Origin: an uncultured Candidatus Saccharibacteria bacterium
Lineage (GTDB): Bacteria > Patescibacteriota > Dojkabacteria > J137
Assembly: GCA_964607415.1 (NCBI GenBank)
Contig: CAZSKK010000001.1
Span: forward strand, 333,469-397,468
Reading direction: 5' to 3'
DNA length: 64,000 bases
The notes beneath the pieces were generated by a model. That model was not told where the DNA came from and did not search any database. It was given only the letters and a program-made list of their open reading frames with translations. A program made the translations under genes and the position numbers. Shown here in pieces: positions 28,971-64,000 of this stretch; position 1 is the stretch's first letter; every line of letters begins with the position of its first letter.

Positions 28971-29020
28971 GAAAAAGACGTGACTAAATACCCTAATTCT
29001 TGAATCGTGGATCTTGATTC

Positions 29021-31055: not shown

Positions 31056-31082
31056 TTAGCACTTAAAGTATAAGATTGCTAA
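31056..31082. promoter_or_regulatory. CIRCE-like HrcA operator upstream of dnaK
   Basis: TTAGCACTT-aaagtataa-GATTGCTAA. Its TTAGCA-N15-TGCTAA spacing is identical to the CIRCE consensus TTAGCACTC-N9-GAGTGCTAA. Confidence 0.6.
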
Positions 31083-32146: not shown

Positions 32147-32351
32147 ATTATATTAAATTAAAGAATGTAAAAATCTGGTAATTCAATTGAAATTAAGTAG
32201 TAATTCGTTGTAGAACAGAATAACGAAACAAAAATTACGGATTTCAAATTATGTGTTGTTTAACTTGTAATTCTCGATTTGCTTCCTCGTAATTAATGCG
32301 CATACACGACTTACGCTCTCTTATGGCTTTTTACCTCTAAACCTGTTTTCA

Positions 32352-33161: not shown

Positions 33162-33188
33162 TTAGCAGAGAAAGTTAAGAGGTGCTAA
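33162..33188. promoter_or_regulatory. CIRCE-like HrcA operator upstream of hrcA
   Basis: TTAGCAGAG-aaagttaag-AGGTGCTAA. This is TTAGCA-N15-TGCTAA with correct spacing, 73 bp upstream of the hrcA start. Confidence 0.55.
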
Positions 33189-41996: not shown

Positions 41997-42029
41997 AATT
42001 AAATGTTTACATTTACTGTTTTTCACTCT

Positions 42030-42330
42030 ATAATTAATTCAACTCACAAGGATGAAAGTTCCCAGCTTTCGGAGTGATGGCAGAACTGCGATTAATTCGA
42101 ATAATGCCAGCTGAACTTGCAGTGTTAAAACAAGAACAACGAGTCTCGCGAATTCGAGAGAAACAAGGTGGTACCGTGAACAATTTACAATTTTAAATTT
42201 TTTAATTTCCAAATCATTAACTTGAAAATTGGTAATTAGAATTTTAAAATTAATTGCATCGCCCTTGCATTTAGATATTAGCTAAAGATTTTGTCTTTAT
42301 TTAGTATTTGAGCGCAAGGGTTTTTTGTTT
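42030..42330 (+). promoter_or_regulatory. T-box riboswitch-like leader of proS
   Basis: The GC-rich structured leader contains AACAAGGUGGUACCGUG at 42163..42179, matching the T-box consensus AAnnnGGGUGGUACCGCG. A helix tctcg-cgaatt-cgaga lies just upstream. A downstream hairpin (cccttgc...gcaaggg) plus a U-tract sits at 42262..42326. Candidate Pro specifier triplets (CCC at about 42077, CCA at about 42111) were not resolved. Confidence 0.5.
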
Positions 42331-42403
42331 ATCTCTGCTGATTACCGAAAACTGAAAATAATTTTAATTACTGAAAACACATAACTCATTACTCACAACC
42401 AAT

Positions 42404-45370: not shown

Positions 45371-45417
45371 ATCATTTGTTTTAAGAATTATTATTAAACT
45401 ATAGTTTTAAGGTTTTC

Positions 45418-45476
45418 GTTTGAGCTATCGGATGTCTGCTTTCAGCTATCTGAGAGCTGATGGCTGATAGCTGCTT
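45418..45476. repeat. Palindromic intergenic repeat (family R2), copy b, between the permease stop and the ATPase start
   Basis: gagctatcggatgtctgctttcagctatctgagagctgatggctgatagctgc. It shares an identical 12-mer and 16-mer with 4481..4563. Confidence 0.5.
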
Positions 45477-48731: not shown

Positions 48732-49565
48732 TTACGATTCACGGTTATAAGTGTTATTTAGACTGTCTATAAGTTTTTTATATGCCGTTTTTTCAGCTTT
48801 ATTATTAAAGTTTACGCTTTGAGTAGGCTCAAAATACATTATGCCGCTAGGTAATCTTGTTCCGATAATATCAAACTTAAATCCATCCTCATTGTAGGAT
48901 TGCTGGTACCCATTAGCTTGCTTATTTAGAATTTTTTGATTCTCTGCAACGCGAAACGCATTATTGGCATCCTTAAGTTTACTTGCTATTTCCGAATCCT
49001 CAACAATCATCAAGCTTTCTAGCGCTAAAGGTAAATTTGAAATAACACCATTTGTGTCAGTTATTCTAGGAAGAATTCCTTGAGTAGTTTTACTTGCGCC
49101 ATAAACTAAAGCTGTTTCTGTTATATCACTACCCTTTCTTTTAAAAACAACAACAATATCTTTTTCTAAAGAAGTAAATTGTTCATGTACAGTTCCTACT
49201 TCAAGGCTCGTCAAAATACCTCCTTTGTTGTACTGTCCTTCTAGAGCTTCTCTAGAATTTTTAGGCACTAGTGATCTTATAGCTAAAGCTATTTGCCTTG
49301 GTGTATGTGTGCTAAGCTCGTAAACAGCTTTTGGGTAAACAACTCTCCCTCTTGACAGCTCCACACCAGCAACTTCCGCATGTGTTTCATAGTTCCTATC
49401 TATTGATTTACTGCCATTACCTCTTTTATTCACAAAATCAACCTCTTTGCCATTATTAGCTTGGCTCCAGTATAAGTTTTGCGGGTTTAATGGAGATTCG
49501 TGCTCTTGAATATAACCATATACATCATCACCTTTTTTCATAGTATCTAATTGTAACGAATCCAT
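48732..49565 (-). CDS. Hypothetical soluble protein
   Basis: 277-aa ORF with no motif. Confidence 0.35.
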   Translation of the reverse strand: MDSLQLDTMKKGDDVYGYIQEHESPLNPQNLYWSQANNGKEVDFVNKRGNGSKSIDRNYETHAEVAGVELSRGRVVYPKAVYELSTHTPRQIALAIRSLVPKNSREALEGQYNKGGILTSLEVGTVHEQFTSLEKDIVVVFKRKGSDITETALVYGASKTTQGILPRITDTNGVISNLPLALESLMIVEDSEIASKLKDANNAFRVAENQKILNKQANGYQQSYNEDGFKFDIIGTRLPSGIMYFEPTQSVNFNNKAEKTAYKKLIDSLNNTYNRES

Positions 49566-49757
49566 ATAAACTTAATGTTAACATCTAAAATTTCCGAATT
49601 TTAGCACCCTGTATTATATGTAGCAAGAAAATCTTAAATACTGATTTAATATTAAAATTGTATACATTGACTTGAAAACTCATTGAGCTGTAAGATGTTT
49701 AGTAGCGTTAGACGTTAGAAGTTTGACGTAGGACGAAGAACAAGCATTAGCTTGCTG

Positions 49758-49820
49758 ATTTGTTAATTAGTAAAAGGTTAATTAGTGCCTAACCAATTAA
49801 CCGGCCACAAGTTAACTAAA
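49758..49820. promoter_or_regulatory. Conserved AT-rich operator-like motif, copy 1 (GTTAATTAG direct repeats plus TTAACCAATTAACC)
   Basis: tttgttaattagtaaaaggttaattagtgcctaaccaattaaccggccacaagttaactaaa, upstream of the gene at 49908 and closely matching 55714..55825. Confidence 0.45.
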
Positions 49821-49907
49821 TAGGCTTAGTATTTCAAATTTTATTAAGTTATATTCCGGACTAAATCCGAAATGACGCTACAATGCTTAAATCATTAACA
49901 TTCTACT

Positions 49908-51587
49908 GTGGCAAAAAAACGTAGACGAAAAAAGAAAACTAACTATTTTAGATATATAATTCTAATAGCATTAACTATTGGTGTTTATTTTGGCTATTCT
50001 AAATACATGGAATCAAAAGCTTTTGCAGATTTTCCATCTTCTTTAACAACGAAATCAAATTCTACTCACTGGTGGAATGATAACTACGCTTATAGAAGAG
50101 AAATTAATTCGACAAATCAAAATAGTTTAAAATATTTTGTATTAAATCATGGAGAGCTAGTAATTAATTCAAAATCAAACGAAGATGGATCAGATTTAAT
50201 TCTTGTTTCTCAAGATAATTCAAATAAGTCAACAGAACTTCCATTTGAAATCAGGAATATTGATGAAATTAATGTTGAAATAGGATTTGATTCTTCAAGC
50301 TTAATATCTCAAAAAGTCTTTTTGTATTACGGAAATAAAATGCCTGAGAAAAATAATGTATTAGGCACTTTTTCTATACTGGACAATGCAGAAGAAGTTT
50401 CAATCGGCATTGAGGAATCACCTGTTGTTACAATAATACCTTCACATTCGTGGGTTTTAAAAGAAAATTCCGGTACCAAACTAGACTTAATGCTTAATTA
50501 CGATCAATCAATAGGAAACTACTTCGAAGCTTCTTATGTTATAGATCAAAACGAACCTGTAAAAGTGAAATCGTCAGGTAAAAACCTGGAAGTAAATCTT
50601 TCGAATATAGCTATTGGCAAGCACAGTCTTTTCTTGCTCATTAAAGATAAGGATACAAAATATAGAACAAACACCATTGATATTATCATTTCTGCTCCAG
50701 TTTATGTTGCCTGGACACTTGATTGGGAAGGAATTGATCCAACCCCTGAAAACCTTGCGGACCTGGAGAAAGTTGCTAATGAACACAAAATACCATTAAT
50801 ACATTACTTTAATCCTCGTGTTCTTATTCACACCGCAATTACAAAACAAAGAAAGCAAGATATTGTAAACTGGTTGAAAAAAAGAATTCAAAATGGGGAC
50901 GAATTTGGCATGCATATGCATATGCATCATGACATGGTTGAATTTGCAGGAATAAAACCCAGAGAAACTGCTCCTACTTGGGATGGTGGCACAAAAGGAT
51001 ACGATACACCAACCAGTGAGTATCCATATGCTGAATTTTTAAAACTTGTAAACTGGGCAAAAAGCATGTTCAGTCAATACAACCTGCCTGCACCCGTAGG
51101 CTATAGAGCTGGCGGTTGGTTTGCGGACACAGATACTCTTAAAGCTTTGGAAGATGCTGGCTTTAAATACGACAGTTCTGGTAGAAAACCTTTTGCACTA
51201 GGATCAACTGGTATTCAACAAGCGTGGACTTTAGATATAACAACACAACCTTATTATCCGTCTTACACCAATCAGAATAATCAGGGTGCAACCGATCCTA
51301 TGAAACTTCTTGAAATTCCAAACAACGGAATGGATTCTTATTGGTCCGAAACTCAACAGTTAATAGATAACTTTTATGCAAACTATGTCCCTGGAACCTT
51401 TTTAAATGAAGATATTGTGATTGTGTATTTGACCCATCCGGAATGGTTTAATTCTGTAGATAAGCCTAAGGTTAAACAACTATTTAACGAATTAGATAAA
51501 TACTCCTACGAAAAGAATAAAGGACCGGTGAAGTATGTGACGCTTGAGAACTACATGAAAGAATCCGTAAGATTGAACGAAAAATAG
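49908..51587 (+). CDS. Hypothetical N-terminally anchored exported protein; possible divergent polysaccharide deacetylase (CE4)-like C-terminal domain
   Basis: N-terminal TM YIILIALTIGVYFGY. The C-terminal domain has WTLDWEG (compare the NodB TFDDG motif), a His cluster HMHMHMHHD and YRAGGW. Confidence 0.3.
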   Translation: MAKKRRRKKKTNYFRYIILIALTIGVYFGYSKYMESKAFADFPSSLTTKSNSTHWWNDNYAYRREINSTNQNSLKYFVLNHGELVINSKSNEDGSDLILVSQDNSNKSTELPFEIRNIDEINVEIGFDSSSLISQKVFLYYGNKMPEKNNVLGTFSILDNAEEVSIGIEESPVVTIIPSHSWVLKENSGTKLDLMLNYDQSIGNYFEASYVIDQNEPVKVKSSGKNLEVNLSNIAIGKHSLFLLIKDKDTKYRTNTIDIIISAPVYVAWTLDWEGIDPTPENLADLEKVANEHKIPLIHYFNPRVLIHTAITKQRKQDIVNWLKKRIQNGDEFGMHMHMHHDMVEFAGIKPRETAPTWDGGTKGYDTPTSEYPYAEFLKLVNWAKSMFSQYNLPAPVGYRAGGWFADTDTLKALEDAGFKYDSSGRKPFALGSTGIQQAWTLDITTQPYYPSYTNQNNQGATDPMKLLEIPNNGMDSYWSETQQLIDNFYANYVPGTFLNEDIVIVYLTHPEWFNSVDKPKVKQLFNELDKYSYEKNKGPVKYVTLENYMKESVRLNEK

Positions 51588-51665
51588 CCTCACCCAATTC
51601 CGACTAATCGGAATTTCCCTCTCCATCTGGAGAGGGCGGCGAAGCCGGGTGAGACTATTTAGTAT
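51588..51665. terminator. GC-rich palindromic element between convergent genes (49908 gene and asnS); bidirectional terminator candidate
   Basis: gcctcacccaattccgactaatcggaatttccctctccatctggagagggcggcgaagccgggtgag. It has nested inverted repeats (ctcaccc/gggtgag, aattccga/tcggaatt, ccctctcca/tggagaggg). Confidence 0.5.
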
Positions 51666-52958
51666 TTATGGTCTTGTTAAAACTGTCGTTCTTGGGAACG
51701 CAATAGTCTCTCTAATATGGTGAACTCCACTTACCCACCTAACCATTCTTTCTAGTCCTAAACCAAAGCCACTGTGAACCACAGACCCATACTTTCTAAT
51801 GTTTAAGTACCACTCATAATCTGATACTGGATAGTTTCTCGCTTTCAGTTCCGCAAGCAGTTTGTCATAATCTTCTTCTCTTTGGCTCCCACCAATAATT
51901 TCTCGAGCTTCTTCTGGAGCAATTAAGTCCGCATTTCTTGCTCTAACCATTCCTTTATCATCTGTATATTTTTTCATGTAAAATGCTTTAACAGCAAATG
52001 GATAATCTTCAATAAATACTGGAACTCCAAAGTGATTTCCTATTTCGATTTCCTCCTCTGTGGTCATGTCGTCGTTATAATCAACCTTAAATCCTTTTTC
52101 TTCCATTAGCTTTTTAGCATCATAATGCTTCATTCTAACAAAAGGAGTGTTTACTGTTTTTTCCAGTACAGTTGTATCTCTTTCCAAAATTTCTAATTCA
52201 ACTTTACAGTTTTCAATACAATCTTTAAGAATCCTTTTTACCATTGCTTCTTGAACATCTTCATTCATTGATTGATCATGAAATGCCATTTCAGCATCCA
52301 TCATCCAAAATTCCGATAAATGATTTCTGGTCTTACTTTTTTCTGCTCTAAAAACGGGGCCAAAATCGTAAACTTTTCCAAAACTCATAATCGCAGCCTC
52401 ACTATAAAGCTGACCTGATTGAGTTAAATACATTTGATCTTCATAGTACTTTAGTGAAAATAGTTGAGTTGTATCCTCACAACTTGTTGGTTGCAAAATT
52501 GGAGTATCAAATCTAATAAAACCTTGCTCGTGATAAAAGTTTGTAATAGATCTAAAAACCTGATCTCTGATTCTTAAAACAGCCCAAGGAGTTTTTGATC
52601 TTAAATACAAATCCCTGTTTTCAAATAAAAATTCTGGCCCATGTTCTTTTTTACCAATTGGGAAATCTTCTGATTTTCCAATAAGTTTAACTTCTGAAAC
52701 TTGAATTTCATATTCTTCTTTTTTAGGATGTTTAGAGATTGTGCCATTAATTTCAACTGATGATTCTAAACCTAGTTCTTCAGCATACTTCCAAGTCTCT
52801 TCTGAAACTTTATCTTTTTCTACAACCGCTTGAATAAATCCTGACCCATCACGTAACTGCAAGAATGCTATTTTCCCAGAGGATCTTTTATTGTACATCC
52901 AGCCTTTAAAGATGATTGATCTATCTACGAACTCTTTTGCTTTTGAAATTGTGAACAT
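51666..52958 (-). CDS. asnS: Asparaginyl-tRNA synthetase
   Basis: 430 aa, class IIb. Motif 2 is FRAEKSKTRNHLSEFWMMDAEMAF (EFWM is AsnRS-like). Motif 3 is GGSQREEDYDKL...YGSVVHSGFGLGLERMV...AFPRT (GSVxHSGFG and the FPRT end are AsnRS-like). Confidence 0.75.
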   Translation of the reverse strand: MFTISKAKEFVDRSIIFKGWMYNKRSSGKIAFLQLRDGSGFIQAVVEKDKVSEETWKYAEELGLESSVEINGTISKHPKKEEYEIQVSEVKLIGKSEDFPIGKKEHGPEFLFENRDLYLRSKTPWAVLRIRDQVFRSITNFYHEQGFIRFDTPILQPTSCEDTTQLFSLKYYEDQMYLTQSGQLYSEAAIMSFGKVYDFGPVFRAEKSKTRNHLSEFWMMDAEMAFHDQSMNEDVQEAMVKRILKDCIENCKVELEILERDTTVLEKTVNTPFVRMKHYDAKKLMEEKGFKVDYNDDMTTEEEIEIGNHFGVPVFIEDYPFAVKAFYMKKYTDDKGMVRARNADLIAPEEAREIIGGSQREEDYDKLLAELKARNYPVSDYEWYLNIRKYGSVVHSGFGLGLERMVRWVSGVHHIRETIAFPRTTVLTRP

Positions 52959-53207
52959 ATATTTTAAGATATAAGTAATAAGTTATGAGTAACTAGTTTT
53001 ATTTTTAGCTAATAGCTTATAGCTAATAGTTAAACCATTTACTTCCCCTGAGAATGCATATTATGCATTCGAATGTAGCTAACTTAGCTCCACTCAACAG
53101 CACAATGTGCTGTTTCGGGATGAGGTATAAGATAAATAAGCTGTTAAAACTTTCTGCTCAGCTAGGATTCCCTTCGACAGGCTCAGGGTAAACTCCAAAG
53201 TAATAAT

Positions 53208-53290
53208 CTGGCATGGTAGGACTCGAACCCCAAACAGTATATTATACTGTTTGGCAAAACATAAGTTCTATATTAATTTGAACTTATGTA
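53208..53290 (-). other. tRNA 3'-end-like fragment (GGGGTTCGAGTCCTACCATGCCAG) preceded by two perfect 10-11 bp hairpins; a second tRNA-Asn 3'-end-like fragment lies at 53140..53180
   Basis: The minus strand reads ACATAAGTTC-aaattaatata-GAACTTATGT TTTG CCAAACAGTAT-aata-ATACTGTTTGG GGTTCGAGTCCTACCATGCCAG, which resembles the tRNA-Asn T-arm/acceptor (CTAGGTTCGAATCCTAGCTGACCAG). At 53148..53162 the plus strand reads gctcagctaggattc, compared with ggtcagctaggattc in the tRNA itself. No complete cloverleaf can be drawn. Confidence 0.3.
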
Positions 53291-53298
53291 AACAGAAA

Positions 53299-53370
53299 CT
53301 GGTCAGCTAGGATTCGAACCTAGAGTCTTCCCGTTAACAGCGGGATGCAATACCATTATGCTACTGACCA
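53299..53370 (-). tRNA. tRNA-Asn (anticodon GUU)
   Basis: Reverse complement: TGGTCAG-TA-GCAT-AATGGTAT-TGC-AT-CCCG-CUGUUAA-CGGGA-AGACT-CTAGG-TTCGAAT-CCTAG-CTGACCA-G. The acceptor is a perfect 7 bp. The anticodon loop is C-U-GUU-A-A. The T-loop is GGTTCGAATCC, the discriminator is G, and CCA is not encoded. Confidence 0.85.
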
Positions 53371-53379
53371 TTATAGCTT

Positions 53380-53412
53380 TTGTGTCACTCTGAGGGAAAT
53401 CGAAGAGTGACA
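53380..53412. other. Perfect 10-bp hairpin immediately upstream (5') of tRNA-Asn
   Basis: gtgtcactct-gagggaaatcgaa-gagtgacac. Confidence 0.4.
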
Positions 53413-53470
53413 CACTTAAAACCATACGTCATAGTTCAATTTCCTCCACTACGACATTGTATAAAAACAA

Positions 53471-53500
53471 AAAAACTCCTTTTTCCCAGGAGTTTTATTA
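53471..53500. terminator. Intrinsic terminator hairpin with T-tracts on both strands, downstream of aspS
   Basis: aaaactcct-ttttccc-aggagtttt. On the minus strand it is followed by tttgttttt. Confidence 0.5.
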
Positions 53501-53667
53501 TTCTTAACAACAATAAAAGCTCCGGTTTAGGAGTTGTTATTATTATTGTTATTATTAGCTTTCTTGAACATAAATAAATTATACCAATGAGTTAATCAAA
53601 TAACAAGACTACTGTCCTTCCGAAGCAACCTATGCATGTAAATGAATACAGAATGACACCGCGGAAT

Positions 53668-55464
53668 TCACACTGAAAAATCACCTAGAATTGGATTAAC
53701 CGCATCAACTAAATCTTTAGCCTTCATTTCAATTGAGCAGGTTCTTTTGCCACAGTTAAAGTCAACTGTTTCGTTATTTAAAATCTTTTCATCAAAATAC
53801 GTTTTTAAGCCTAAAAGATTCCCTAGTGGAGGAACTCCACCAACTTGAATTCCAAATTTTTCTAAAATCACTTCTGGTTTTTCAAATTCAATTGCTTCTC
53901 CCAAAATTTCTTTTGCTTTAGTCATATCTAGTTTTAAGTGAGCTGGCATTACAAACATAAAGTTCTCGCTAGATTTCTTGCCTTTAACAATTAGAGCCTT
54001 AGCTCCTTCTTCAATTTTGGTTCCTCTAACTCTACTTGCATCTTCACTTGTTACAACTTCTTCATGTTCATCGTATTCATATTTAAAACCAAATTTATCT
54101 AAATGTTTTTTTATTTGCTCTGTAACATCAATATTTTTGTTGAATTTTCTTTTGATTGGAACACCAGCAATTCGCTTTGTGTCTGATGGGAACAAAACTG
54201 TCTCTCTGATATTTTCTAAACCTAGAAGCTGTAGAGTAAATCTTTCAAGGCCAATCCCAAACCCTCCATGTTTTGGCATACCGTATTTGAATATTGATAG
54301 ATAATCCGTAAAATCTTCCGGATTTAAACCCTTCATTTTTAAACTTTCTACCAAATCATCGTATTTATCAATTCTTTGGCCTCCACTTGAAACTTCAGTT
54401 CCATTACAAATTAAATCCCCGTAGTTACAAACCAGTGGATTTTCTTCATTTGGTTTTGCATAAAATGCACATTTTGTTCTTGGGAAGTGAGTAACAAAAA
54501 TAAAATCAATTCCAAATTTTTCTTTAGCATATTTACATATAAATCTTTCCGCATCAGGCGAAAGATCATTTTCATTTCTTTCATCTTTGCCTGTTGCTTC
54601 AAAATATAGTTCTAGTGCTTCTTTTAATGTAACTTTTGGAATTGTAATCTCATCTTTAAGAGTTGCAAAATTAGGAAAGAGTTTAATTTCTTCAGCACAT
54701 TTTTCCAGAACTTTTTTATACATTGCTTTAATTACTTTTTCCTCCCACTCCAAAACTTCATCAAATTTTTCAATAAATCCAACTTCAAATTCAAACTGAG
54801 TTGCTTCTGTAATATGTCTTCTGGTATTTGATTTTTCAGCTCTAAAGCACTTCAAAGTTCCAAAAACTCTTTCAAAAACACCAACCATCATTTGTTTATA
54901 TAGTTGGTTTGATTGAGCTAATTTTGCTTCAACACCAAAGTAATCGACAGTAAAAAGTTCTGCCCCACCCTCACTTGAAGCTCCAATAATGGCAGGTCCC
55001 ATAAACTCTGTAAATCCTTGAGATATAAGATATTCTCTATATCCTTCTAAAATTGCAGCTTGAATCTTAAAAACTGCACTGATTTTTTCATTCCTTAAAG
55101 TTAGCGGTCTATAATCTAAAATTGTATCAATGTGAGCATTAATTTCTGGTTTATTAACTTCAACAGGCCAAGGTTCCGTTATAGCATTTTCAATTGTAAT
55201 TTCAGGATTAGTGATTTCAAAACCAAGCTCTGCTTGTGAATTTTCTTTTACAATTCCAAAAATTTTTATAATTGATCCAGGCTGAAGTGTACTTAAATTT
55301 TTTATATCATCCGCATTTTCAACAAAAACCTGAACCAAACCGCCTCTATCTCTTAAAATTAAAAAAGCAATTTTTCCAAGTTTCCTAAAGTTATGTAACC
55401 AACCTTTTATATAGACTTTTTCGCCCACTTTTTCTTGGCACTCAGTAGATATTATTCGTTCCAC
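53668..55464 (-). CDS. aspS: Archaeal/eukaryal-type aspartyl-tRNA synthetase fused to a C-terminal YbaK/ProX-like aminoacyl-tRNA deacylase domain
   Basis: 598 aa. N-terminal OB fold. Motif 2 is FRAEKSNTRRHITEATQFEFEVGF. Motif 3 is SSGGQRIDKYDDLVESLKMKGLNPEDFTDYLSIFKYGMPKHGGFGIGLER...LFPSD (compare archaeal AspRS GMPPHGGFGLG...FPRD). An extra ~150-aa C-terminal domain has ALIVKGKKS..FMFVMPAHLKLDMTKAKEILG, FGIQVGGVPPLGN and FNCGKRTCSIEMKAKDL, matching the YbaK blocks (YKTLLV.., GYLVGGISPLG, VSGGKRGLDIEL). Confidence 0.75.
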   Translation of the reverse strand: MERIISTECQEKVGEKVYIKGWLHNFRKLGKIAFLILRDRGGLVQVFVENADDIKNLSTLQPGSIIKIFGIVKENSQAELGFEITNPEITIENAITEPWPVEVNKPEINAHIDTILDYRPLTLRNEKISAVFKIQAAILEGYREYLISQGFTEFMGPAIIGASSEGGAELFTVDYFGVEAKLAQSNQLYKQMMVGVFERVFGTLKCFRAEKSNTRRHITEATQFEFEVGFIEKFDEVLEWEEKVIKAMYKKVLEKCAEEIKLFPNFATLKDEITIPKVTLKEALELYFEATGKDERNENDLSPDAERFICKYAKEKFGIDFIFVTHFPRTKCAFYAKPNEENPLVCNYGDLICNGTEVSSGGQRIDKYDDLVESLKMKGLNPEDFTDYLSIFKYGMPKHGGFGIGLERFTLQLLGLENIRETVLFPSDTKRIAGVPIKRKFNKNIDVTEQIKKHLDKFGFKYEYDEHEEVVTSEDASRVRGTKIEEGAKALIVKGKKSSENFMFVMPAHLKLDMTKAKEILGEAIEFEKPEVILEKFGIQVGGVPPLGNLLGLKTYFDEKILNNETVDFNCGKRTCSIEMKAKDLVDAVNPILGDFSV

Positions 55465-55713
55465 AGTAATATGATTAAATAATAAAGATTATAGATTAAC
55501 GACTAAAGAAAATCTTTAATTTACAAACATCAGTTTTAAAAACTGAGAATTCTTTAAAACTTGTCCTGAACTAGTTTCAGGATTGTACTTTGAAAATTAT
55601 TTTGAATGCTTTGATCTTGATTATTTGGGCTCATTCGTGCTCTTTACCTCTCTACCTTTTCTAAGTATACTATTCAAAGATTATAGCAAAAATGAAAGAA
55701 TAGAAGAGTTAAT

Positions 55714-55825
55714 TTGTTAATTAGTCTCAGGTTAATTAGTAAAATACGAATTAACTTTTTTACTAGTTAACCAATTAACCTATGCAATATAAACTCAAAA
55801 CCCTTAACCCGTTAACTCTTAAACT
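55714..55825. promoter_or_regulatory. Conserved AT-rich operator-like motif, copy 2
   Basis: tttgttaattagtctcaggttaattagtaaaatacgaattaacttttttactagttaaccaattaacc...cccgttaactc, upstream of the gene at 55832. Confidence 0.45.
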
Positions 55826-55831
55826 TTTCAT

Positions 55832-56581
55832 ATGAATGATGCACAAATTACAGACCAGGAATTTAAGAAATATATAAAAAGACTTGTAAATATTAATCGA
55901 AAAAGAAATGTTGCCTTCAGGGGACTTATTAATGGGGTTTTTACAGCCATCGGAGCGACCTTGGGATTTGCTATTGTGCTTGTAATAACCGCCCAACTTC
56001 TTTCAAGTTTAAGGCAAGTGAGCATAATCGATCAATTTTTAAGCGAAACTAAACTTGATGTTTTAATCGAATCTCAACTTAAGCAAATCCAGCAAGAAGA
56101 ATTAAAACAAGAAGAAAATTCCGAGGAAGGCACAAATGATAATAAAGATACAAATTCAGAAGACCAACCTTATTATTTGAGTTATGAAAATAAGGCTCTG
56201 GATTTAACTTTCAACTATCCTGCCAGTCTTACAAATTTTAGTGAGTATGATATTAATTCTACAAACAGCAATGATTCTTTTATCCTTTCTTTTGAAGGAT
56301 TCGGAATCATAAAAAGTCTTGTTGTTTATATTAACCCTGACAGTGTTGATTTAATAGGAAGCTCGCAAAGTTATGATGTAGAATCAACTTTGGAAGAAAA
56401 ATCGAAAGTCCTTATTTATGAAAAAGGTGCAACAGTAAATGGTGACGAAGTATCTGACCCTGTTTTATACTTCAAGTTCACCAAAGGGGCTAACAATTTT
56501 TATATGATTGCTAAAGCTGACAGTTCAACACCTAAGATAGCAAGAGAGATTTTCTTAACAGTTGCTGAGAGTATAAGATAG
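55832..56581 (+). CDS. Hypothetical N-terminally anchored exported protein
   Basis: TM FTAIGATLGFAIVLVITAQLL, then an acidic hydrophilic domain. Confidence 0.4.
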   Translation: MNDAQITDQEFKKYIKRLVNINRKRNVAFRGLINGVFTAIGATLGFAIVLVITAQLLSSLRQVSIIDQFLSETKLDVLIESQLKQIQQEELKQEENSEEGTNDNKDTNSEDQPYYLSYENKALDLTFNYPASLTNFSEYDINSTNSNDSFILSFEGFGIIKSLVVYINPDSVDLIGSSQSYDVESTLEEKSKVLIYEKGATVNGDEVSDPVLYFKFTKGANNFYMIAKADSSTPKIAREIFLTVAESIR

Positions 56582-56744
56582 GCTACAAGCGCGACTCAGG
56601 TTAAAGGTTTGTGCAGTATGAGTCACGATATGTCGGGAATTGCAATACAAATCCGTCAACATCATGTGTCTACTTCGAATTTTTTCGAAGTGACAGTAAT
56701 TAAGAAATTTTTTCTTATTATGCCTTGTTCCTTATACCTTACTT

Positions 56745-57518
56745 TTATTTCACCTTCTTAACCTCTCCACTTCCTGAAATATTCTGGCTGAAATTATCAG
56801 GATCACCTTTGTAGGAGATTTTCCCACTACCTGAAATATTTATATCTAACTTCTTTTCGGCTGAAATTTCTGCTTCAGCTGAACCACTTACATCTATTTC
56901 CGTTTCTTTTGTCTCTAAGTCTAATGCTAAATATTTTCCGGATCCACTTATATTTATGTCTTGTTTATCTGCAACTCCAAAAAGTGTAAGTTCACCGCTA
57001 CCACTAATATCGACATTAAGCTCTTTTATTTTTACCTCCAACTCGACGACTCCGGACCCGTTAATATCAACTTTTAGCTTATCTGTATTTAAAACGTAGT
57101 TATTTGCACCCTTAAAACTAGCCGAGCCATTAACTTTTAGCTCTTCTAAATCTGTGGTTGTTATTTTTATTCTGATTTTGTCCGATGGTTTATAGTTCTT
57201 TGAAAAAATCATTGCTATGTCATTTTTGAAATCGATAACAAGTCTTCTTCCTGAAACATTAGCTTCTATTCCTTTGATAATATTATCATCTGATTCAATT
57301 TCAATTTTTTCTTTCGAACCTTCTTCAATAACAACTTCCGCTGGTATATTAACAGTAACCTTTCTAAAAATCTTAAGATTTCTTGATTCAGACTCTATAA
57401 TTCCTGAACCTTTAACAGTATTAGCTTTAGAATAAATATAAAGTCCAAAAACTACTGCAGAAAGAAGAAAACAAAAAATACTTAAAAGTACTATTAAAAC
57501 AATGCTGACTTTTTTCAT
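56745..57518 (-). CDS. Exported repeat protein (DUF2807 / putative adhesin head-like beta-helix repeats)
   Basis: N-terminal TM. Repeated units are I-x-(I/V)SGSG-x-(L/V), including DINISGSGKYLAL, DISGSGELTLFG, IDVSGSAEAEISA, INGSGVVELEV and DINISGSGKISYKG. Confidence 0.45.
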   Translation of the reverse strand: MKKVSIVLIVLLSIFCFLLSAVVFGLYIYSKANTVKGSGIIESESRNLKIFRKVTVNIPAEVVIEEGSKEKIEIESDDNIIKGIEANVSGRRLVIDFKNDIAMIFSKNYKPSDKIRIKITTTDLEELKVNGSASFKGANNYVLNTDKLKVDINGSGVVELEVKIKELNVDISGSGELTLFGVADKQDINISGSGKYLALDLETKETEIDVSGSAEAEISAEKKLDINISGSGKISYKGDPDNFSQNISGSGEVKKVK

Positions 57519-57906
57519 ACTGAAAGTATTGATAATAACTAGAATGTAGTATTAGTATAGAATATAGACAAATTTAAAGCAATTTGAGGTCAATCTGAAG
57601 TATAAAGCTAGAAATCTTTAGCTTTAGGCATTGGGTTTTAGTTTTGTTGCTTGGGGCCCCTTGCAACAGTTCAACAAGATTGTATTTTTTATGGTTCGCG
57701 TACATCTTCAACCTTGTTTTGAACTTACAAATGTTAACAATTACAAAAAATCTGGTCAATGAAATTGTGAAGAGAATATGATATGTTTAAACTAGATTGG
57801 CTATATTAGCATTATATTGTAATAAGCCGTCATCATGAATTCATTTCAGGATCTTGCGTTAATCCAAAAAATGCCATACCAAGTTTAGCATGGTGTCTTT
57901 CTTTTG

Positions 57907-59931
57907 TTAGTACTTTCTCAAACTTTCAATACTTGTTTGTTCTGGAGCTACTTTTCTTTCAACTTGAACTGGTTTTTGATTTGTATACAAAGGCATTCCA
58001 AAACTAAATACACTGCCTTCCCCGACTTTACTTTGAACATCTAAAATTCCTTCCATTATCCTTATAAGATTGAATGAAACGTAAAGTCCTAGACCGGTAC
58101 CACCTGGTCTCACAATTGATGCTGGATCGCCTGGATCTCCTGTATACTGCTTTGCACGAAAGAACTTTCTTCCAAGCTTTTTTAAATCCTGCTCATCAAT
58201 ACCGATCCCAGAATCTCTAACATGCACCCAACCAAAGTTATCCTTAACTTCAACAGATATTTCTACAAAACCTTTAGGAGTGTATTTAATTGCGTTTCCA
58301 ATAAAGTTATCTGCAACTTCTTGAATTCTTGTTCTATCGCAGTAAACAAATACGTCCTTTTCTGGCTTTTGATACTTAATTTCAAGGCCTCGCTTAATTG
58401 CTTGACCTTTTAAAGCTTCCAACGAATCATTAATAACATCCAAAAGATCAACCTTTTCAATAGCCAATTGAAAGCCTTTGCTGTCTGCTTTTGTTGCAGA
58501 AAGAAGTGTTTCAATAAGGTTAATTTCTCGTTTTGCAGATTCAATTGCTGCATCTACATATTTTTGTTGTTTATCTAAAGGAATAGAACCTTCCTTTTTT
58601 AAGTGAAGCTCCATCATGCCTAAAGCATTTCTAACAATAGACATTGGAGTTCGAAGTTCATGTCCCATAATGTCAATCATATCCCGTTCACGCTCGCGGG
58701 CAATTTGAAGTTCGCTTAGTGCTATCTCCAGATTATTTTTAACTCTTTCAACTTCTGTAAATAATCTTGCATTTTCTAGTGCAATACCAATTTGAGTTGT
58801 ATATGTTTGCAATAGTTGCTTTTGATTTTCTTCCAATTCTTCAGACCCTTTATCCTTTATCAGATAACCTATTGTTCCTACAATTCTGCCCCTAGAAAAT
58901 ACTGGATACACTGCTATGGATTTTACGTTTATAATTCTAAGAAGTGGTGTTATCAATGTTTTTGGAATTGGTGGTGAAAAAGCATTTATAAGGTCATTAG
59001 AAAACTGCGGTTCCCCTGAAAGGATAGCTTTCACAGTAGGCGTTCCAACTGCAGCTGGGTCTTTTACAAAAGTTTCATATTTTTTAAAGTCTCCCAGTAA
59101 ATTTCTTGCAGCATCTGAAATTCTGTTTCTTGTTAATGCTTTGACTGTAATTGAACCTTCTAAAGAGTCGTAATCAGTAAGAATACCACCTATCATCATT
59201 TGATCTTGTGGCAAAGAATCAACAGCAGTTTGACTTACTACATCAGGATCCAATGATTTACTGATTTGAGAAGTTAGGTTGTAGAGGGAGGCAAGTTCAT
59301 TTGCCTTCAAACGTATAGTATGGAGCTGATTATTTTTTTCTTCGAAAGATTGAGCATTGAAAATGGCGATTGCAACTTGAGATGAATAGATTTTTAATAA
59401 ATCAAAGTCGGAACTAAAAGATTCATCTTTTAGCTTAGTAAACATTATTACACCTAAACAGTCAGTTCTGTATATTAATGGTAATGACACAATTCTTTTT
59501 GTTCTGCTTAGATTCTGCAAAATGTTTGCAACATTAGACGTTATTGTAGGAACAATAAAATCTGCAAGATTCTCAGATTCCTTAATTTCTTTGTCTAAAA
59601 ATGTTCTAACAATAAAGTTGGATTTTTCTGCAATAGAAACATTAAGACTATCAAATGATCCACCAATAAGCCTTTTCGTAAGCAAGTTATTAATAGCCTT
59701 ATTAGTAAATGTCTTACTATAAATTTTTTGCGCTTTATCATTATATAAAAAAACTACCGCACTATCATACTTCAGTTTATTTACAATTATATCCACAGAC
59801 TTTTGTAATATTTCGTCAAGGCTTAAGCTAGTACCTATCAAATTGCCAACGTCAATAACAGCAGCGTACTTAGACTGAACAATCTGGGTGTCCATTTGAC
59901 TATTTGTTATTGTTTTTCTAGAACCAAACAT
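57907..59931 (-). CDS. Cytoplasmic sensor histidine kinase with tandem GAF-like domains
   Basis: 674 aa. H-box MGHELRTPMSIV and HATPase_c (VRDSGIGIDEQ, GGTGLGLYV). No TM segments. Confidence 0.8.
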   Translation of the reverse strand: MFGSRKTITNSQMDTQIVQSKYAAVIDVGNLIGTSLSLDEILQKSVDIIVNKLKYDSAVVFLYNDKAQKIYSKTFTNKAINNLLTKRLIGGSFDSLNVSIAEKSNFIVRTFLDKEIKESENLADFIVPTITSNVANILQNLSRTKRIVSLPLIYRTDCLGVIMFTKLKDESFSSDFDLLKIYSSQVAIAIFNAQSFEEKNNQLHTIRLKANELASLYNLTSQISKSLDPDVVSQTAVDSLPQDQMMIGGILTDYDSLEGSITVKALTRNRISDAARNLLGDFKKYETFVKDPAAVGTPTVKAILSGEPQFSNDLINAFSPPIPKTLITPLLRIINVKSIAVYPVFSRGRIVGTIGYLIKDKGSEELEENQKQLLQTYTTQIGIALENARLFTEVERVKNNLEIALSELQIARERERDMIDIMGHELRTPMSIVRNALGMMELHLKKEGSIPLDKQQKYVDAAIESAKREINLIETLLSATKADSKGFQLAIEKVDLLDVINDSLEALKGQAIKRGLEIKYQKPEKDVFVYCDRTRIQEVADNFIGNAIKYTPKGFVEISVEVKDNFGWVHVRDSGIGIDEQDLKKLGRKFFRAKQYTGDPGDPASIVRPGGTGLGLYVSFNLIRIMEGILDVQSKVGEGSVFSFGMPLYTNQKPVQVERKVAPEQTSIESLRKY

Positions 59932-61081
59932 TAATATTACTTCCTTTAACTATAAGAATGAGTTCGCTAAGCAATTTTTGAATATCTCCAGAGAGATTCT
60001 GTTCTAATAACAATAATATATAGAAATTTAGTACATATTCTAATATACTATCAAACTTTTCTATTTCATCAAAACTTTTAAAATCATCAATTATAGTATT
60101 AATGATCTTTTTAAATAAAGTGCATACTGCTTCCTCACCCCGTGTAAAGGTATTTAGATCATTATTGAACTTACCATCAAATACCTCTGAAAAAAGGTTA
60201 GTATCGTTTCTATCTTTATCTTGTTCATAATCAAGCATGTCATCTAGTAACACATTTAATATTCCTACACCTCTAAATGCCATAATCAGATGACTTAAGA
60301 CCTCGTAATTACTTAGCTCATTCAATTCCATATAAACAAATAGTGGAACTAGAAAACTTATGCTATCTCCTAGGAATTGAAACCAAAGCTCATGACTTTT
60401 AACCCAACCAGGAACACTTTTCCAAGATGTATTATCATATTGAAATGTAGTTTCTCTAAGCTTAATTTTTAAGGACTGCTTTTCAGATTCATCCCTAACA
60501 TGGTCAAGAGCTATAAATGTGTAATATTCAGTAAGTCTTTTATCAACAACTTCTAGTGTTTTTGTATCCATCGGTTTCTTGATATTAATAAGGTCTCTAA
60601 ACCTTATCCCTAATTTCTTGTATAAGTCATTCCAACCATTAAGAATCTGGCTTTCAAGTTGAGAATAATTTTTATTAGGGAAAATACTTTGTTGATCACC
60701 ATATAATATATTGCTTTTCATCGCTTCAAAAATGTAGAGTTGGTCATCCATATTACGTAACATTTCAATTTCACTTAGAGTATCCGCAAAGTCTACTTGG
60801 GTAAATTCTAAAATTGCAATTGCCTCTATGGTTTCCCTTTTTAACTTTTTCCCTTTTTTATATTTTTCTAATACGCTTTGAAAGTAGATAAGCGCTGCTA
60901 CAGTATGAAGTTTTTTTAACTGTACTAAATTCAATATATTCTGTTCATCGCCTAGAGCATTACTGGCAAGAGCTTTAGATTTAAGCTCTGCTGTAAATGT
61001 TTCACTTATGAAAATGTCTACCTTATCACTATAGTAGAAGTAGTGTTTGGAGCTAAGAATTTTTTCTAAAGTTTGGTTCAT
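59918..61081 (-). CDS. Hypothetical all-alpha protein (operon partner of the GAF kinase)
   Basis: 387 aa. It overlaps the kinase start by 14 nt and the regulator stop by 4 nt. It contains LLDDMLDYEQDKD; no family recognised. Confidence 0.4.
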   Translation of the reverse strand: MNQTLEKILSSKHYFYYSDKVDIFISETFTAELKSKALASNALGDEQNILNLVQLKKLHTVAALIYFQSVLEKYKKGKKLKRETIEAIAILEFTQVDFADTLSEIEMLRNMDDQLYIFEAMKSNILYGDQQSIFPNKNYSQLESQILNGWNDLYKKLGIRFRDLINIKKPMDTKTLEVVDKRLTEYYTFIALDHVRDESEKQSLKIKLRETTFQYDNTSWKSVPGWVKSHELWFQFLGDSISFLVPLFVYMELNELSNYEVLSHLIMAFRGVGILNVLLDDMLDYEQDKDRNDTNLFSEVFDGKFNNDLNTFTRGEEAVCTLFKKIINTIIDDFKSFDEIEKFDSILEYVLNFYILLLLEQNLSGDIQKLLSELILIVKGSNINVWF

Positions 61082-61839
61082 GTTTTAAGTTTACTAATTG
61101 CTATGGCAACATTTTCTGAAAAAAGTTTTAATGTTTCAAAGTCTGCTTTGAAGTCATCCGTATAAGATTTACCGTAATAAATAGCTCCTATGGATTTATC
61201 ATTTACTACTAACGGGAATGCAATCCCTGTTTTAACTCTTGCAATTCTCTCAAGCACTCGAGCTATATTTTTATTTACCGCAGGAGCTAGAAAATCTTCA
61301 TGTTTATTACTCATTTGATATGTTCTACTTATAATCGCCTTAACCATCAAATTTTTTTCCTCGTTGATCGATACTTTAATCTTTTGAATAGGTTTACCTA
61401 TAATTTTCATAGATAAATCGCTATACCAAGAATTGGTAAATGCTTTTAATACTACGCTATCATCTTCAACTAGAACTATAAAGCTTCCAAGCAAATTTAA
61501 AGTATATGCTATTTCATTTACAGCAACTTGTGCCACCTTCCCAATACTATCATATCTATGAAAAGAATTAATTGTACTAATTATGTTCATAACATATTGT
61601 CTAGTATCAATACCAAAAACTTCTGATGCTTCATTTGCATTTAGTTGCAACATATCAATTATTTTTACGAGAGTTTCCTTCGTTGGGTTCACCTCACCAT
61701 TTTCAATTCTACTAATACTCCCTGGGCTTGCGTCAATTAGGCCTTCCAACTTCATTTGGCTAAGCCCTGCTCTTAAACGGAAGTTGCGGATTTTATTGCC
61801 TAGATCGTAAGTTTTTTGCTGGATTGTGTTGGGTGTCAT
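61078..61839 (-). CDS. XRE-family HTH transcriptional regulator with a C-terminal GAF-like sensor domain
   Basis: The N-terminal HTH is LGNKIRNFRLRAGLSQMKLEGLIDASPGSISRIENGE. The C-terminal ~170 aa are GAF-like. Confidence 0.55.
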   Translation of the reverse strand: MTPNTIQQKTYDLGNKIRNFRLRAGLSQMKLEGLIDASPGSISRIENGEVNPTKETLVKIIDMLQLNANEASEVFGIDTRQYVMNIISTINSFHRYDSIGKVAQVAVNEIAYTLNLLGSFIVLVEDDSVVLKAFTNSWYSDLSMKIIGKPIQKIKVSINEEKNLMVKAIISRTYQMSNKHEDFLAPAVNKNIARVLERIARVKTGIAFPLVVNDKSIGAIYYGKSYTDDFKADFETLKLFSENVAIAISKLKT

Positions 61840-62049
61840 TGTTTGTAAAGATTATATCATTCAATAAATGATAATTACTCGTACTAGATTTTCACCATGG
61901 GTTGGTCTACTTTTAATGAAAAAGTTTTTCATTGGGATTTCATTCGTTATTAGTGATTCGAATTTTGTCATTCCACAAAATGTTTTTGGTAAGTCTACCA
62001 AAAATATTTTGTGGCCGCATTGTATTGCGGTACAAATTTTGAGTGAAAT

Positions 62050-62547
62050 TTATTTTTGAAACTGCTCGTTGAAAGAAATAAGTTCCTCTGAGTTTGATAG
62101 CCAAGGGACTAAGTTAATGAGCTCTTCAGTACTACAAGGTTTTATAAACTTTACTGCGCTCTTATCATCAAGTTTTTCGTTTGTTGAAAGTTTGAGTTCG
62201 CTTGAAGTTTTTTGCAATTTAAGCATAAGCCTCACTTGCAAATATTCTTGTAAACTAAGATTCTGAGGATCATTCTCAATCAAGTAATAACCAAAAAACT
62301 GAAGTTCATCCTTATGGCTTTCAATTTTCAAATTTGTTTCCTCAAAAACTTCACGAATAGCAACCTGATCAATAGATTCGCCTTCTTCTGGATGTCCACC
62401 TGGAAACTGCCATTTATTTCCATCTTTAGAAACTAAAATGATTTTATTATCTTCTGTAACTAGCCAAACATATACTTGAAGCACTTCAATATTTTGATGT
62501 TGCCTGCCGATTTTGTTTGCAGCGAACCATTTCCTTGTTAGTTCCAT
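62050..62547 (-). CDS. NUDIX hydrolase
   Basis: Nudix box GGHPEEGESIDQVAIREVFEETNL. Confidence 0.8.
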   Translation of the reverse strand: MELTRKWFAANKIGRQHQNIEVLQVYVWLVTEDNKIILVSKDGNKWQFPGGHPEEGESIDQVAIREVFEETNLKIESHKDELQFFGYYLIENDPQNLSLQEYLQVRLMLKLQKTSSELKLSTNEKLDDKSAVKFIKPCSTEELINLVPWLSNSEELISFNEQFQK

Positions 62548-62582
62548 AGTTAAAAATTTTATAAAATCTGCATTAATTATTA

Positions 62583-64000
62583 TTACCTCCCTAATAATTC
62601 GTAATAGAAATCTTCACCGTCAATTGGCTTAGATTTCATTAATTTTAATTTTTTATTTTCTATCTTATAAGCTTGTTCTATATTTAAATCTTGCATTAAG
62701 TCAATGTCATGAGATATCAATAATATTGCTCCAGGAAAATTATTTAAAGAGTCTGTAATAATCTCTAGTGTCTCTATATCCAGATTGTTAGTCGGTTCAT
62801 CAAGAATTAATATGCTCACAGGTGAGCTAGTAATCATAGCAAATGATAACCTTGCTGTTTCGCCACCACTTAAAGTTCCAGCAAGCTTTTCAACATCCTC
62901 TGTTTGATAGAACAGTACATTTCCAAGATACCTCCTTGCCTCTTCGTAGGTTAGCAAGGGATTCGCTTTTTGCATATTTTCAATCAAAGATAAACTGGGA
63001 TCAACTATGTCGTATTTTTGACTCATATAAAGAATAGAAGCATTCTCATTTCTCCTAACTTCACCATCAACCTCAGCGCCACTACTTAAGCCTTGAATAG
63101 TTTTAACTAAAGTTGTTTTACCACTACCGTTAGGCCCAGTTATTGCAATGCGGTCACCGTACTTTACAGAAAGATTTATATTAGATATTAATGTAGTATT
63201 TCCAACTGACACCTCAACATTTTCAAGATTGATAATATTTCTCTTGCCAGCCTCAGGTTGAATTTCCAAATAAGCTTTTTTCGTTTTCCTAGTTTTTAGT
63301 TCCTCTACCTTAGTAGTTGCATCATCTATTTTCTTTGTTGCGGCACTCCCTTTTTTTCCTGCAGACTGTGATGCTTTTTCTGCAAACCATCCTTTTTCAT
63401 AAGCTGACATACTTCTGTCCGTTCTTGCTTTCTTCCCTTCCTTATTAGATCTCGCTGCTCTTTTTTCTTCAGCTTGCTTAGCTCTTCTTGCCTTTCTTAG
63501 CTCTTTTTGTGCAGCCTCTAAATCTCTTTCTCTACCGAGTGAAATAGCTTCTTTCTGTAAATCATAGTCAGTATAATTCCCTCCAAATCTTTTAATTGTT
63601 TTTTCATCTAGTTCCCAAACTTTATTTACTACTAAATCTAAAAAGAATCTGTTATGAGAAATAATTACAAAGCCACCTTCAAAATCCTCAAGAAATTCTC
63701 TTAAAATCTCAATTGATTCTATGTCTAAATGATTTGTAGGCTCATCTAGCAAAAGAATATCAGGTTTTTTTGCCAATGCTATTGCAAGATTCATTTTTAC
63801 AAGTTCTCCTCCGCTTAAAGAACTAATTGGCCTATCTAAATCCACAATAGTAAGTTTAAATTTCTGCTCCAAAATTTCTGTCACTTCCCACCATTCTTCG
63901 TGTTGAGCTTGAATTAGTTCATAGATTGGTTGATTGATTGCTACCTGATCAAAATTTAATTGGGATACAGTTGCAGATATGCCTTTAAATTTAACATCAC
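62583..64000 (-). CDS. ABC-F family ATPase (tandem ABC domains), N-terminally truncated by the window edge
   Basis: The frame stays open to position 64000 (...FKGISATVSQLNFDQVAINQPIYELIQAQHEEWWEVTEILEQ...). The first signature is LSGGELVKMNLA, followed by a charged linker. The second Walker A is GPNGSGKTT, the second signature is LSGGETARLSFA, and Walker B is ILILDEPTNNLD. Confidence 0.8.
   Translation of the reverse strand, partial: DVKFKGISATVSQLNFDQVAINQPIYELIQAQHEEWWEVTEILEQKFKLTIVDLDRPISSLSGGELVKMNLAIALAKKPDILLLDEPTNHLDIESIEILREFLEDFEGGFVIISHNRFFLDLVVNKVWELDEKTIKRFGGNYTDYDLQKEAISLGRERDLEAAQKELRKARRAKQAEEKRAARSNKEGKKARTDRSMSAYEKGWFAEKASQSAGKKGSAATKKIDDATTKVEELKTRKTKKAYLEIQPEAGKRNIINLENVEVSVGNTTLISNINLSVKYGDRIAITGPNGSGKTTLVKTIQGLSSGAEVDGEVRRNENASILYMSQKYDIVDPSLSLIENMQKANPLLTYEEARRYLGNVLFYQTEDVEKLAGTLSGGETARLSFAMITSSPVSILILDEPTNNLDIETLEIITDSLNNFPGAILLISHDIDLMQDLNIEQAYKIENKKLKLMKSKPIDGEDFYYELLGR

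Follow-up and report, generated by a model that had tools for sequence, protein, structure and literature searches.

What does an AT-rich palindromic motif do when it recurs, in the same order, upstream of two unrelated genes in an uncultured bacterium? We addressed this question in a 64,000-nt stretch of DNA from an uncultured Candidatus Saccharibacteria bacterium (GTDB lineage Patescibacteriota, Dojkabacteria; GenBank assembly GCA_964607415.1, contig CAZSKK010000001.1, positions 333,469 to 397,468 of the forward strand), hereafter the window, which has a G+C content of ~33%. The first copy of the motif precedes a gene at 49908..51587 (+) for a 559-aa protein with an N-terminal membrane anchor and a DUF2334 domain, homologs of which are named predicted deacetylase in some database sources. 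The second precedes a gene at 55832..56581 (+) for a 249-aa protein with a hydrophobic segment at approximately residues 30-55 and a weak DUF5665 match. An earlier, sequence-only reading of the window had described both proteins as N-terminally anchored, which agrees with the single N-terminal hydrophobic segment that we found in each, and had interpreted the motif as a promoter operator through which one dimeric regulator controls envelope proteins. The shared arrangement is real and not a product of chance. We place both copies in predicted 5' leaders, and we favour, tentatively and with slightly less than even confidence, a lineage-specific element that derives from a repeat, forms an AU-rich stem-loop in the leader and exerts its effect on the mRNA.

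Two arrays share boxes but not spacers

Both copies are built from a 10-nt box, GTTAAYTNGT, with forward boxes (F) first and reverse boxes (R) after, separated by 5-nt spacers of free sequence. Copy 1 contains four boxes and copy 2 contains six, and each locus is palindromic with a 15-nt pitch. A 40-nt composite, GTTAATTAGT-N5-GTTAATTAGT-N5-ACNAATTAAC, is exact at both loci. Copy 1 (49759..49819, +) is an imperfect palindrome whose four boxes keep an exact 15-nt pitch and are symmetric about position 49789: F1 (49762-49771, GTTAATTAGT), F2 (49777-49786, GTTAATTAGT), R1 (49792-49801, ACCAATTAAC) and R2 (49807-49816, ACAAGTTAAC), with arms of 28 nt that are 71% complementary and separated by 5 nt. 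Copy 2 (55704..55820, +) is symmetric about roughly 55743 and comprises forward boxes F0 (55708-55717), F1 (55716-55725) and F2 (55731-55740), reverse boxes R1 (55746-55755), R2 (55762-55771) and R3 (55770-55779), and a weak outer pair at 55807-55820. The arms start with TTTGTTAATTAG and AGAGTTAATTTG.

The four main forward boxes are identical, and the extra forward box F0 deviates at position 8 only. Reverse boxes depart from the forward consensus at positions 6 and 8 alone; the predicted stem mostly has a mismatch at position 8, while the T-to-C change at position 6 gives a G.U pair in the plus-strand RNA. The spacers, by contrast, are unrelated between copy 1 and copy 2 (AAAAG/CTCAG, GCCTA/AAAAT and CGGCCA/TTTTTT). 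The ordered arrangement is therefore as had been described and more regular than stated, and its palindromic character is borne out by symmetric forward-then-reverse arrays at both loci. The motif letters quoted earlier hold in general, with the correction that copy 1 has CTAACCAATTAACC, which differs at one position from the TTAACCAATTAACC given there.

Boxes occur in the window far above the frequency expected by chance. The exact 9-mer GTTAATTAG is found six times against 1.17 expected, a count attained in none of 100 shuffles, and the double box is found three times with up to three mismatches against 0.04 expected. The 40-nt composite F-N5-F-N5-ACNAATTAAC appears in no dinucleotide-preserving shuffle of the window, even when three mismatches are allowed. 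At copy 2, GTTAA/TTAAC reaches a density of 10 per 120 nt (0.39 expected). Ten of the 12 perfect GTTAAYTNGT boxes in the window lie inside the two arrays, the isolated ones being at 555 (coding) and 5267. The likeness between the two loci is confined to ~44-75 nt and the two downstream proteins are unrelated, which rules out duplication of a larger segment that includes coding sequence. The shared motif thus withstands the refuting conditions that the earlier reading had set for it.

Position of the arrays relative to predicted promoters

Both arrays had been placed in promoter regions, yet we found a conserved, probable promoter upstream of each. That of gene 49908 (49667..49696, +) reads TTGACT-18-TAAGAT, with a predicted transcription start near 49703, and is kept as TTGACT-18-TATTAT in L252, a 23-kb syntenic contig of a sister strain (L252 and L124, together with L253 and L129) whose ProRS is 95% identical to that of the window. 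For gene 55832, a conserved block (55639..55690, +) holds a probable promoter composed of TTTACC (55643-55648), a 17-nt spacer and TATACT (55666-55671), which matches the consensus at 9 of 12 positions and predicts a transcription start near 55678. This block shares 98% identity with L124 and 86% with L128, another relative, against 38-55% for the neighbouring leader sequence, and we assign it to the 249-aa gene because L128 lacks the divergent upstream gene. Its -35-type motif GCTCTTTACCTCT (55639-55651, +) recurs exactly at 2748-2760 (-) and with one mismatch at 32326-32338 (+), and appears to be the extended -35 region (TTTACC) of one promoter type. At the minus-strand site, TTTACC-17-TATTCT is followed 6 nt further on by an ATG, as would suit a transcript without a leader.

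Relative to the predicted starts, copy 1 spans approximately +60 to +114 and copy 2 approximately +31 to +102, and the ATG of gene 55832 lies at +155. Between the last clear box and the start codon lie 91 nt in copy 1 and 52 nt in copy 2. Because the conserved promoters lie upstream of both arrays, we locate the arrays in leaders and not in promoters: counted from the predicted starts, neither overlaps or adjoins its core promoter (-60 to +20), as an operator would be expected to, and both probably sit in 5' leaders downstream of promoter-like sequences that are conserved in orthologous loci. Two other promoter assignments were tried and rejected. The boxes themselves are unfit to serve as promoters, since a 15-nt pitch does not suit -35/-10 spacing and conserved canonical promoters lie upstream, and TACAAT at 49879-49884 was dropped as the promoter of gene 49908 because L252 keeps TTGACT-18-TATTAT farther upstream and the hexamer lies inside the leader.

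Each array sits between divergent genes. A probable promoter of the gene divergent from 49908 (48732-49565, -) was identified at 49598..49626 (-) as TTGCTA, a 17-nt spacer and TAAAAT with TG, and the 60-nt block that holds it (49588-49647) is 100% identical in L252 (9789-9848). The gene beyond this block differs between the strains, encoding 277 aa in the window and 671 aa in L252 (7752-9767, -); the two proteins are homologous in their last 63 residues only, at 49% identity. On the other side, the leader of gene 49908 is expanded by ~155 nt (49697..49880, +), with a length of ~205 nt in the window versus ~42 nt in L252 by gapped alignment. Besides the copy 1 array, the additional sequence holds TTAG words (49699-49718) with pitches of 9 and 7 nt and a small hairpin at 49741-49754.

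Leaders of this length are unusual for the organism, which does not use Shine-Dalgarno sequences: a Shine-Dalgarno-like 4-mer was found upstream of 5 of 49 genes, compared with ~7% of composition-matched shuffles, and G is depleted upstream of gene starts in the window. At several gene starts a -10-like hexamer lies within ~20 nt of the ATG (for example, 5092-5110 and 61840-61860 in the window, and 9960-10003 in the syntenic relative L130), suggesting mRNAs that have a very short leader or none; against this background a leader of 155-205 nt stands out. As RNA, copy 1 has a predicted fold of -15.9 kcal/mol (z -2.2) and copy 2 (55700-55830) one of -25.8 kcal/mol (z -4.8), with z -4.6 for the whole copy 2 leader.

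Distribution of the arrays among relatives

The sister strain carries an array at neither orthologous leader, and no perfect box was found in its ~22 kb of available sequence (L252, L253, L124 and L129). This pattern, with both arrays in the window and neither in the sister strain, is compatible with a shared role, on the strength of one comparison only. Across orthologous genes the array was found in L128 and was missing from L124, L252, L130 and L131; the latter two encode distant DUF2334 orthologs (45% identity) whose ~80-nt upstream regions hold no array, with TTGCAA-17-TAGAAT placed 6 nt before the ATG in L130.

At the 249-aa gene, the array of L128 matches that of the window at 68 of 77 positions (88%) with no indel, while its flanks are only 38-55% identical, and in the F1-F2 spacer four of five bases are changed between intact boxes. 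L124 has an unrelated ~140 nt where the array would be, containing 12-nt inverted repeats only. Each of the L124 and L128 proteins shares 80% identity with the window protein, and 92% with the other. Because these two are closer to one another than to the window, the array at this gene is older than the divergence of the window from L128, and L124 subsequently exchanged it for other sequence. Judged from these alignments, the array is either well conserved or wholly replaced and behaves as a discrete cassette, not as slowly decaying sequence.

Related words in other organisms

We searched genomes, taking one per species, for GTTAATTAG-N6-GTTAATTAG and metagenomes for the 20-base double box, which returned at least 118 and at least 120 stretches, respectively. 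Among the matches listed, to which the counts in this section refer, hosts were concentrated in Ca. Falkowbacteria, other Patescibacteria and Bacteroidota (many of them Mucilaginibacter), with fewer from Cyanobacteria and from gammaproteobacterial and planctomycete metagenome-assembled genomes (MAGs). Nearly all of the 218 arrays (94%; loci L006-L251) lay outside long open reading frames. Allowing a distance of up to 220 nt and requiring at least 17 of 25 matches, we located an inverted partner downstream in 55 and upstream in 3, so that across phyla a G/T-rich arm precedes a C/A-rich arm, an orientation unexpected from a plain hairpin requirement. Arrays adjoined gene starts and gene ends alike (left neighbours, 98 gene ends and 87 divergent starts; right neighbours, 84 starts and 82 ends).

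Genes downstream of the double box in Patescibacteria included rplK, rpsG, the L23 gene, an nrdG-like gene and genes for HU, MreB, an ABC transporter and a membrane protein. The words are therefore not specific to envelope genes, and no enrichment for envelope functions is seen among these neighbours. Arrays in other organisms also differ in layout from those of the window, having long loops and spacers that are themselves words (GATTA, GATTG and so on).

In Patescibacteria MAGs more generally, leaders and intercistronic spacers are filled with word-repeat hairpins. In the S10 operon of one Ca. Falkowbacteria MAG (L030, JAZDKT010000054, 346-6076, minus strand), 9 of 10 intercistronic spacers (78-203 nt) are built alike, from a tandem 7-10-nt word that starts at or over the stop codon, a short loop and then complementary words, which in most spacers reach within ~10 nt of the ATG; Shine-Dalgarno sequences are missing and the words vary by spacer. 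Similar word-built spacers are present in three other loci (L069, L056 and L110). Predicted folds of the Falkowbacteria spacers go down to -46 kcal/mol, with z -6 to -12 in other MAGs, and some enclose an intrinsic terminator. Comparing sense with antisense folding and G.U counts in the Falkowbacteria spacers, as a means of separating RNA from DNA roles, revealed no consistent asymmetry.

Comparison with known repeats and operators

Several described systems resemble the arrays in part. Cyanobacterial STRR heptamers are related to the TAACTGA repeats, which are the closest parallel in kind. TAACTGA heptamers form direct repeats in Beggiatoaceae, Cyanobacteria and Bacteroidetes, immediately before start codons that lack ribosome-binding sites (MacGregor 2015, PMC4679880); they also occur inside ribosomal-protein operons, a post-transcriptional role is suspected, and 169 sets are direct and one is indirect (PMC4679880). 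Like these repeats, the window arrays are intergenic, consist of stop-codon-rich short words and are not accompanied by a canonical ribosome-binding site; word arrays also stand before unrelated genes, ribosomal protein genes included, and have a patchy phylogenetic spread. They differ in combining a 10-nt box with a non-repetitive 5-nt spacer (15-nt pitch) in place of a contiguous 7-mer, in following the forward boxes with an inverted set to form a palindrome, and in lying 52-91 nt from the start codon and not a few nucleotides away, although the Falkowbacteria loci do show such closeness.

REP and BIME repetitive extragenic palindromes, of which GTAG- and CGTC-tagged superfamilies are described in PMC3733652, share with the arrays the form of short imperfect palindromes limited to untranslated DNA, and are multi-copy, transcribed and proposed to stabilise mRNA. 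The window arrays, however, lack a GTAG or CGTC terminal tag, have AT-rich stems, number two in 64 kb, share boxes and not spacers, and are accompanied by no RAYT-type transposase seen in the window.

Among operators, the heptad arrays of omega and other ribbon-helix-helix proteins and the MetJ boxes consist of contiguous 7-8-bp units that overlap promoters. The window arrays resemble them in having several identical short boxes, both direct and convergent, with conserved boxes and free flanks, but have a 15-bp pitch and lie well downstream of the predicted starts, with no ribbon-helix-helix gene found nearby. Leader stem-loops that stabilise mRNA, such as that of Escherichia coli ompA, form a hairpin at the extreme 5' end. 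The window would likewise have a stem-loop, predicted here, in the long leader of an envelope-protein mRNA, but its arrays start 31-60 nt into the predicted leader.

The CIRCE operator of HrcA is a single inverted repeat, TTAGCACTC-N9-GAGTGCTAA, which the arrays do not match, although they too are inverted, have outer bases TTAG...CTAA and share the window with an HrcA gene. The HrcA homolog (32352-33089, -) lies upstream of grpE and of a gene for a 637-aa protein, which we take to be dnaK. Two adjacent upstream regions in the window carry CIRCE-like sites, TTAGCACTT-N9-GATTGCTAA at 31056-31082 and TTAGCAGAG-N9-AGGTGCTAA at 33162-33188, and this region looks like a classical heat-shock operator system in a Patescibacteria genome. 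In the papers searched we found no description of repeats like the arrays in Patescibacteria, which is not proof that none exists.

Candidate functions of the arrays

Our preferred interpretation, held with a little less than even confidence as stated above, is that both sites are copies of one lineage-specific, compact imperfect palindrome in expanded 5' leaders. Short-word intergenic palindromic repeats are common in Patescibacteria and in several further phyla, and the element may be a local variant of them. On transcription, the array would fold into a two-tier AU-rich stem-loop in the leader, and this structure may affect mRNA stability or access to the start region, which has no Shine-Dalgarno sequence, rather than promoter activity. 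We favour a role at the RNA level because the arrays lie inside predicted leaders, long leaders are unusual here and word-repeat hairpins are frequent in Patescibacteria; promoter use, folding in the cell and an effect of folding on expression are each what we infer.

Several observations count against a leader stem-loop. The transcription starts are predicted from consensus matches and conservation alone. Substitutions between the window and L128 are not compensatory, three of them disrupting predicted base pairs. In L124, the stretch found in place of the array shows no stronger folding than shuffled sequence does (z -0.5), so the hairpin is not a conserved requirement of the gene; the idea, drawn from L124, that the leader hairpin is conserved while its sequence is not was dropped for this reason. 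The compact F-N5-F-N5-R layout was found in none of ~240 arrays among the matches listed from other organisms, and we infer membership of the window arrays in the broad class from shared words and orientation, not from architecture. Structure alone, moreover, does not explain why the same boxes are kept at two unlinked loci while the spacers diverged, a pattern that fits sequence-specific protein recognition too.

Identical boxes at two unlinked loci thus keep alive two readings that involve a binding protein, one at the DNA and one at the RNA level. On the DNA, the boxes would be 10-bp half-sites of an operator on which two to three dimers or a tetramer bind cooperatively, repressing both genes by blocking elongation just past the start site. 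Ribbon-helix-helix repressors such as omega of pSM19035 bind short-repeat arrays of this kind, both direct and convergent. The symmetric arrangement would suit such a protein, as would boxes that are conserved while spacers diverge at constant length (between the loci and in L128), the occurrence of the array at both genes in the window strain and at neither in the sister strain, and the genes for an XRE-HTH/GAF protein and a GAF histidine kinase 2-6 kb away. We nevertheless consider this unlikely, since the arrays lie at +31 to +114, away from the -35, -10 and +1 positions, at unequal distances from the two -10 hexamers (45 and 66 nt), and their 15-bp pitch corresponds to ~1.4 helical turns, off the DNA helical repeat. 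The array is also missing from the relative with 95% ProRS identity and from the orthologs with 45% identity, the double box stands beside unrelated housekeeping genes in other phyla and at gene ends as often as at starts, and the CIRCE-like repeats near hrcA, a classical operator in the same window, are single inverted repeats. The regulators found in the window, HrcA and the XRE-HTH/GAF protein (61078-61839), the latter in an operon with the GAF histidine kinase, are candidates for binding the site; no cognate regulator was identified, and the XRE-GAF/GAF-kinase operon has no array upstream of its own. What survives of the envelope-regulon proposal includes the ordered, non-random set of palindromic boxes, present twice within the 64-kb window and each time before a gene for an N-terminally anchored protein, whereas position, phylogenetic distribution and the wider occurrence of the words do not support a promoter operator. 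On the RNA, C/A-rich reverse words (ACNAATTAAC) and G/U-rich forward words would be bound by an RNA-binding protein or by ribosomal protein S1, tuning translation in the absence of Shine-Dalgarno sequences. The organism's lack of Shine-Dalgarno use accords with this platform, as does the bias towards a G/T-rich first arm (55 versus 3 among the matches listed), which a plain hairpin would not predict; C/A-rich words end 0-20 nt before start codons in Patescibacteria relatives, and such a role has been proposed for the TAACTGA repeats (PMC4679880). In the window, however, the last box is 52 and 91 nt from the start codons and does not adjoin them, arrays across phyla lie at gene ends as often as at starts, and no candidate binding protein was identified, making a protein-binding platform on the mRNA very improbable.

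It is also conceivable, if rather unlikely, that the arrays have no role for the adjacent genes and are neutral or selfish repeats, produced by slippage or template switching or representing a small mobile palindrome of the REP/MITE type. Such an origin would account for the all-or-none distribution between close relatives, in which one array was replaced wholesale and the other amounts to a ~155-nt leader difference, and for arrays near gene boundaries of either type across phyla; a second word family, GCTGATGGCTGATAGC, is common to two or three other spacers of the window, and contigs of relatives break near the array regions (L129). Yet the L128 array is 88% identical without an indel between flanks of 38-55%, which argues for constraint or recent transfer, and the spacers are wholly different between the copies, unlike recent copies of a mobile element. 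Neither a target-site duplication nor a GTAG/CGTC tag was seen, nor was a transposase among the window genes scanned against Pfam. A broader proposal, which we regard as quite doubtful, makes the arrays the local form of an undescribed, phylum-spanning punctuation of messages in bacteria without Shine-Dalgarno sequences, where stop-to-start word hairpins with the G/T-rich arm first would bring stop and start codons together for ribosome hand-over or mark processing sites; the S10 operon of the Falkowbacteria MAG L030 gives the clearest example. Intrinsic termination was rejected on account of the divergent-gene context and AT-rich stems; the sole terminator-like hit was on the minus strand of copy 1, with no gene upstream, and convergent spacers of the window, by contrast, carry G+C-rich hairpins. 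Searches against Rfam returned no array-related family, riboswitch or tRNA at gathering score in the whole window, and at E<=1 in 49500-56000 only tRNA-Asn and a single hit at chance level (53380-53459) that overlaps neither array.

Other features of the window

The ProRS encoded in the window shares 66-70% identity with proteins named Woesebacteria, Collierbacteria, Pacebacteria and "Patescibacteria group", from which the window was assigned to a Microgenomates-type member of the candidate phyla radiation. Upstream of its gene, a 407-nt spacer (41997-42403) contains a strong hairpin followed by a T run, with z -6.6 at 42232-42321, and no Rfam family, T-box included, matched this spacer at threshold. 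Between the two arrays lies a gene for a class II Asp/Asn-type tRNA synthetase fused to a C-terminal aminoacyl-tRNA editing domain (PF04073; 53668-55464, -), which is adjoined by a second, 430-aa paralog (51666-52958, -) and by tRNA-Asn(GTT) (53299-53370, -). The same arrangement of synthetase, paralog and tRNA-Asn is found in L130.

Other spacers of the window also form hairpins. Three convergent spacers (22607-22691, 51588-51665 and 28939-29020) contain nested, G+C-rich hairpins with CCCTCTCCA...TGGAGAGGG in common and, in contrast to the AT-rich arrays, probably serve as bidirectional terminators. Members of the second word family, identical GCTGATGGCTGATAGC at 4535 and 45456 and a variant at 53008, occur in spacers that separate co-directional genes and form hairpins (4479-4563, 45371-45476 and 53008-53023), with hairpin z of -4.3, -5.3 and -6.6 and arms made of GCTGAYR-type heptamers. 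The end of the window (53098-64000) recurs in assemblies from five separate sequencing runs (L001-L005), which match it at every nucleotide for as much as 10.9 kb (100% identity) and thus contain the same strain; runs with DNA at 100% identity include SRR30932924 and SRR22443710. Beyond this, a metagenome scan returned no contig similar to the window, and look-ups of exact proteins gave the same region alone, at 100% identity.

Implications

Patescibacteria have few regulators, and to our knowledge almost nothing is known of how they control their genes. The element described here is statistically solid, lineage-specific and common to two leaders, and is a variant of a known but poorly understood kind of repeat. 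Whatever the arrays do, they carry the lesson that in these genomes the promoter should be located before a shared upstream motif is read as an operator. Were they an operator after all, they would be among the first regulons defined for this lineage. If the arrays instead act on mRNA, as we tentatively favour, they would open a way into the post-transcriptional control of an uncultured group and would connect this genome with the short-word intergenic repeats, as yet unexplained, that are reported from Beggiatoaceae, Cyanobacteria and Bacteroidetes.

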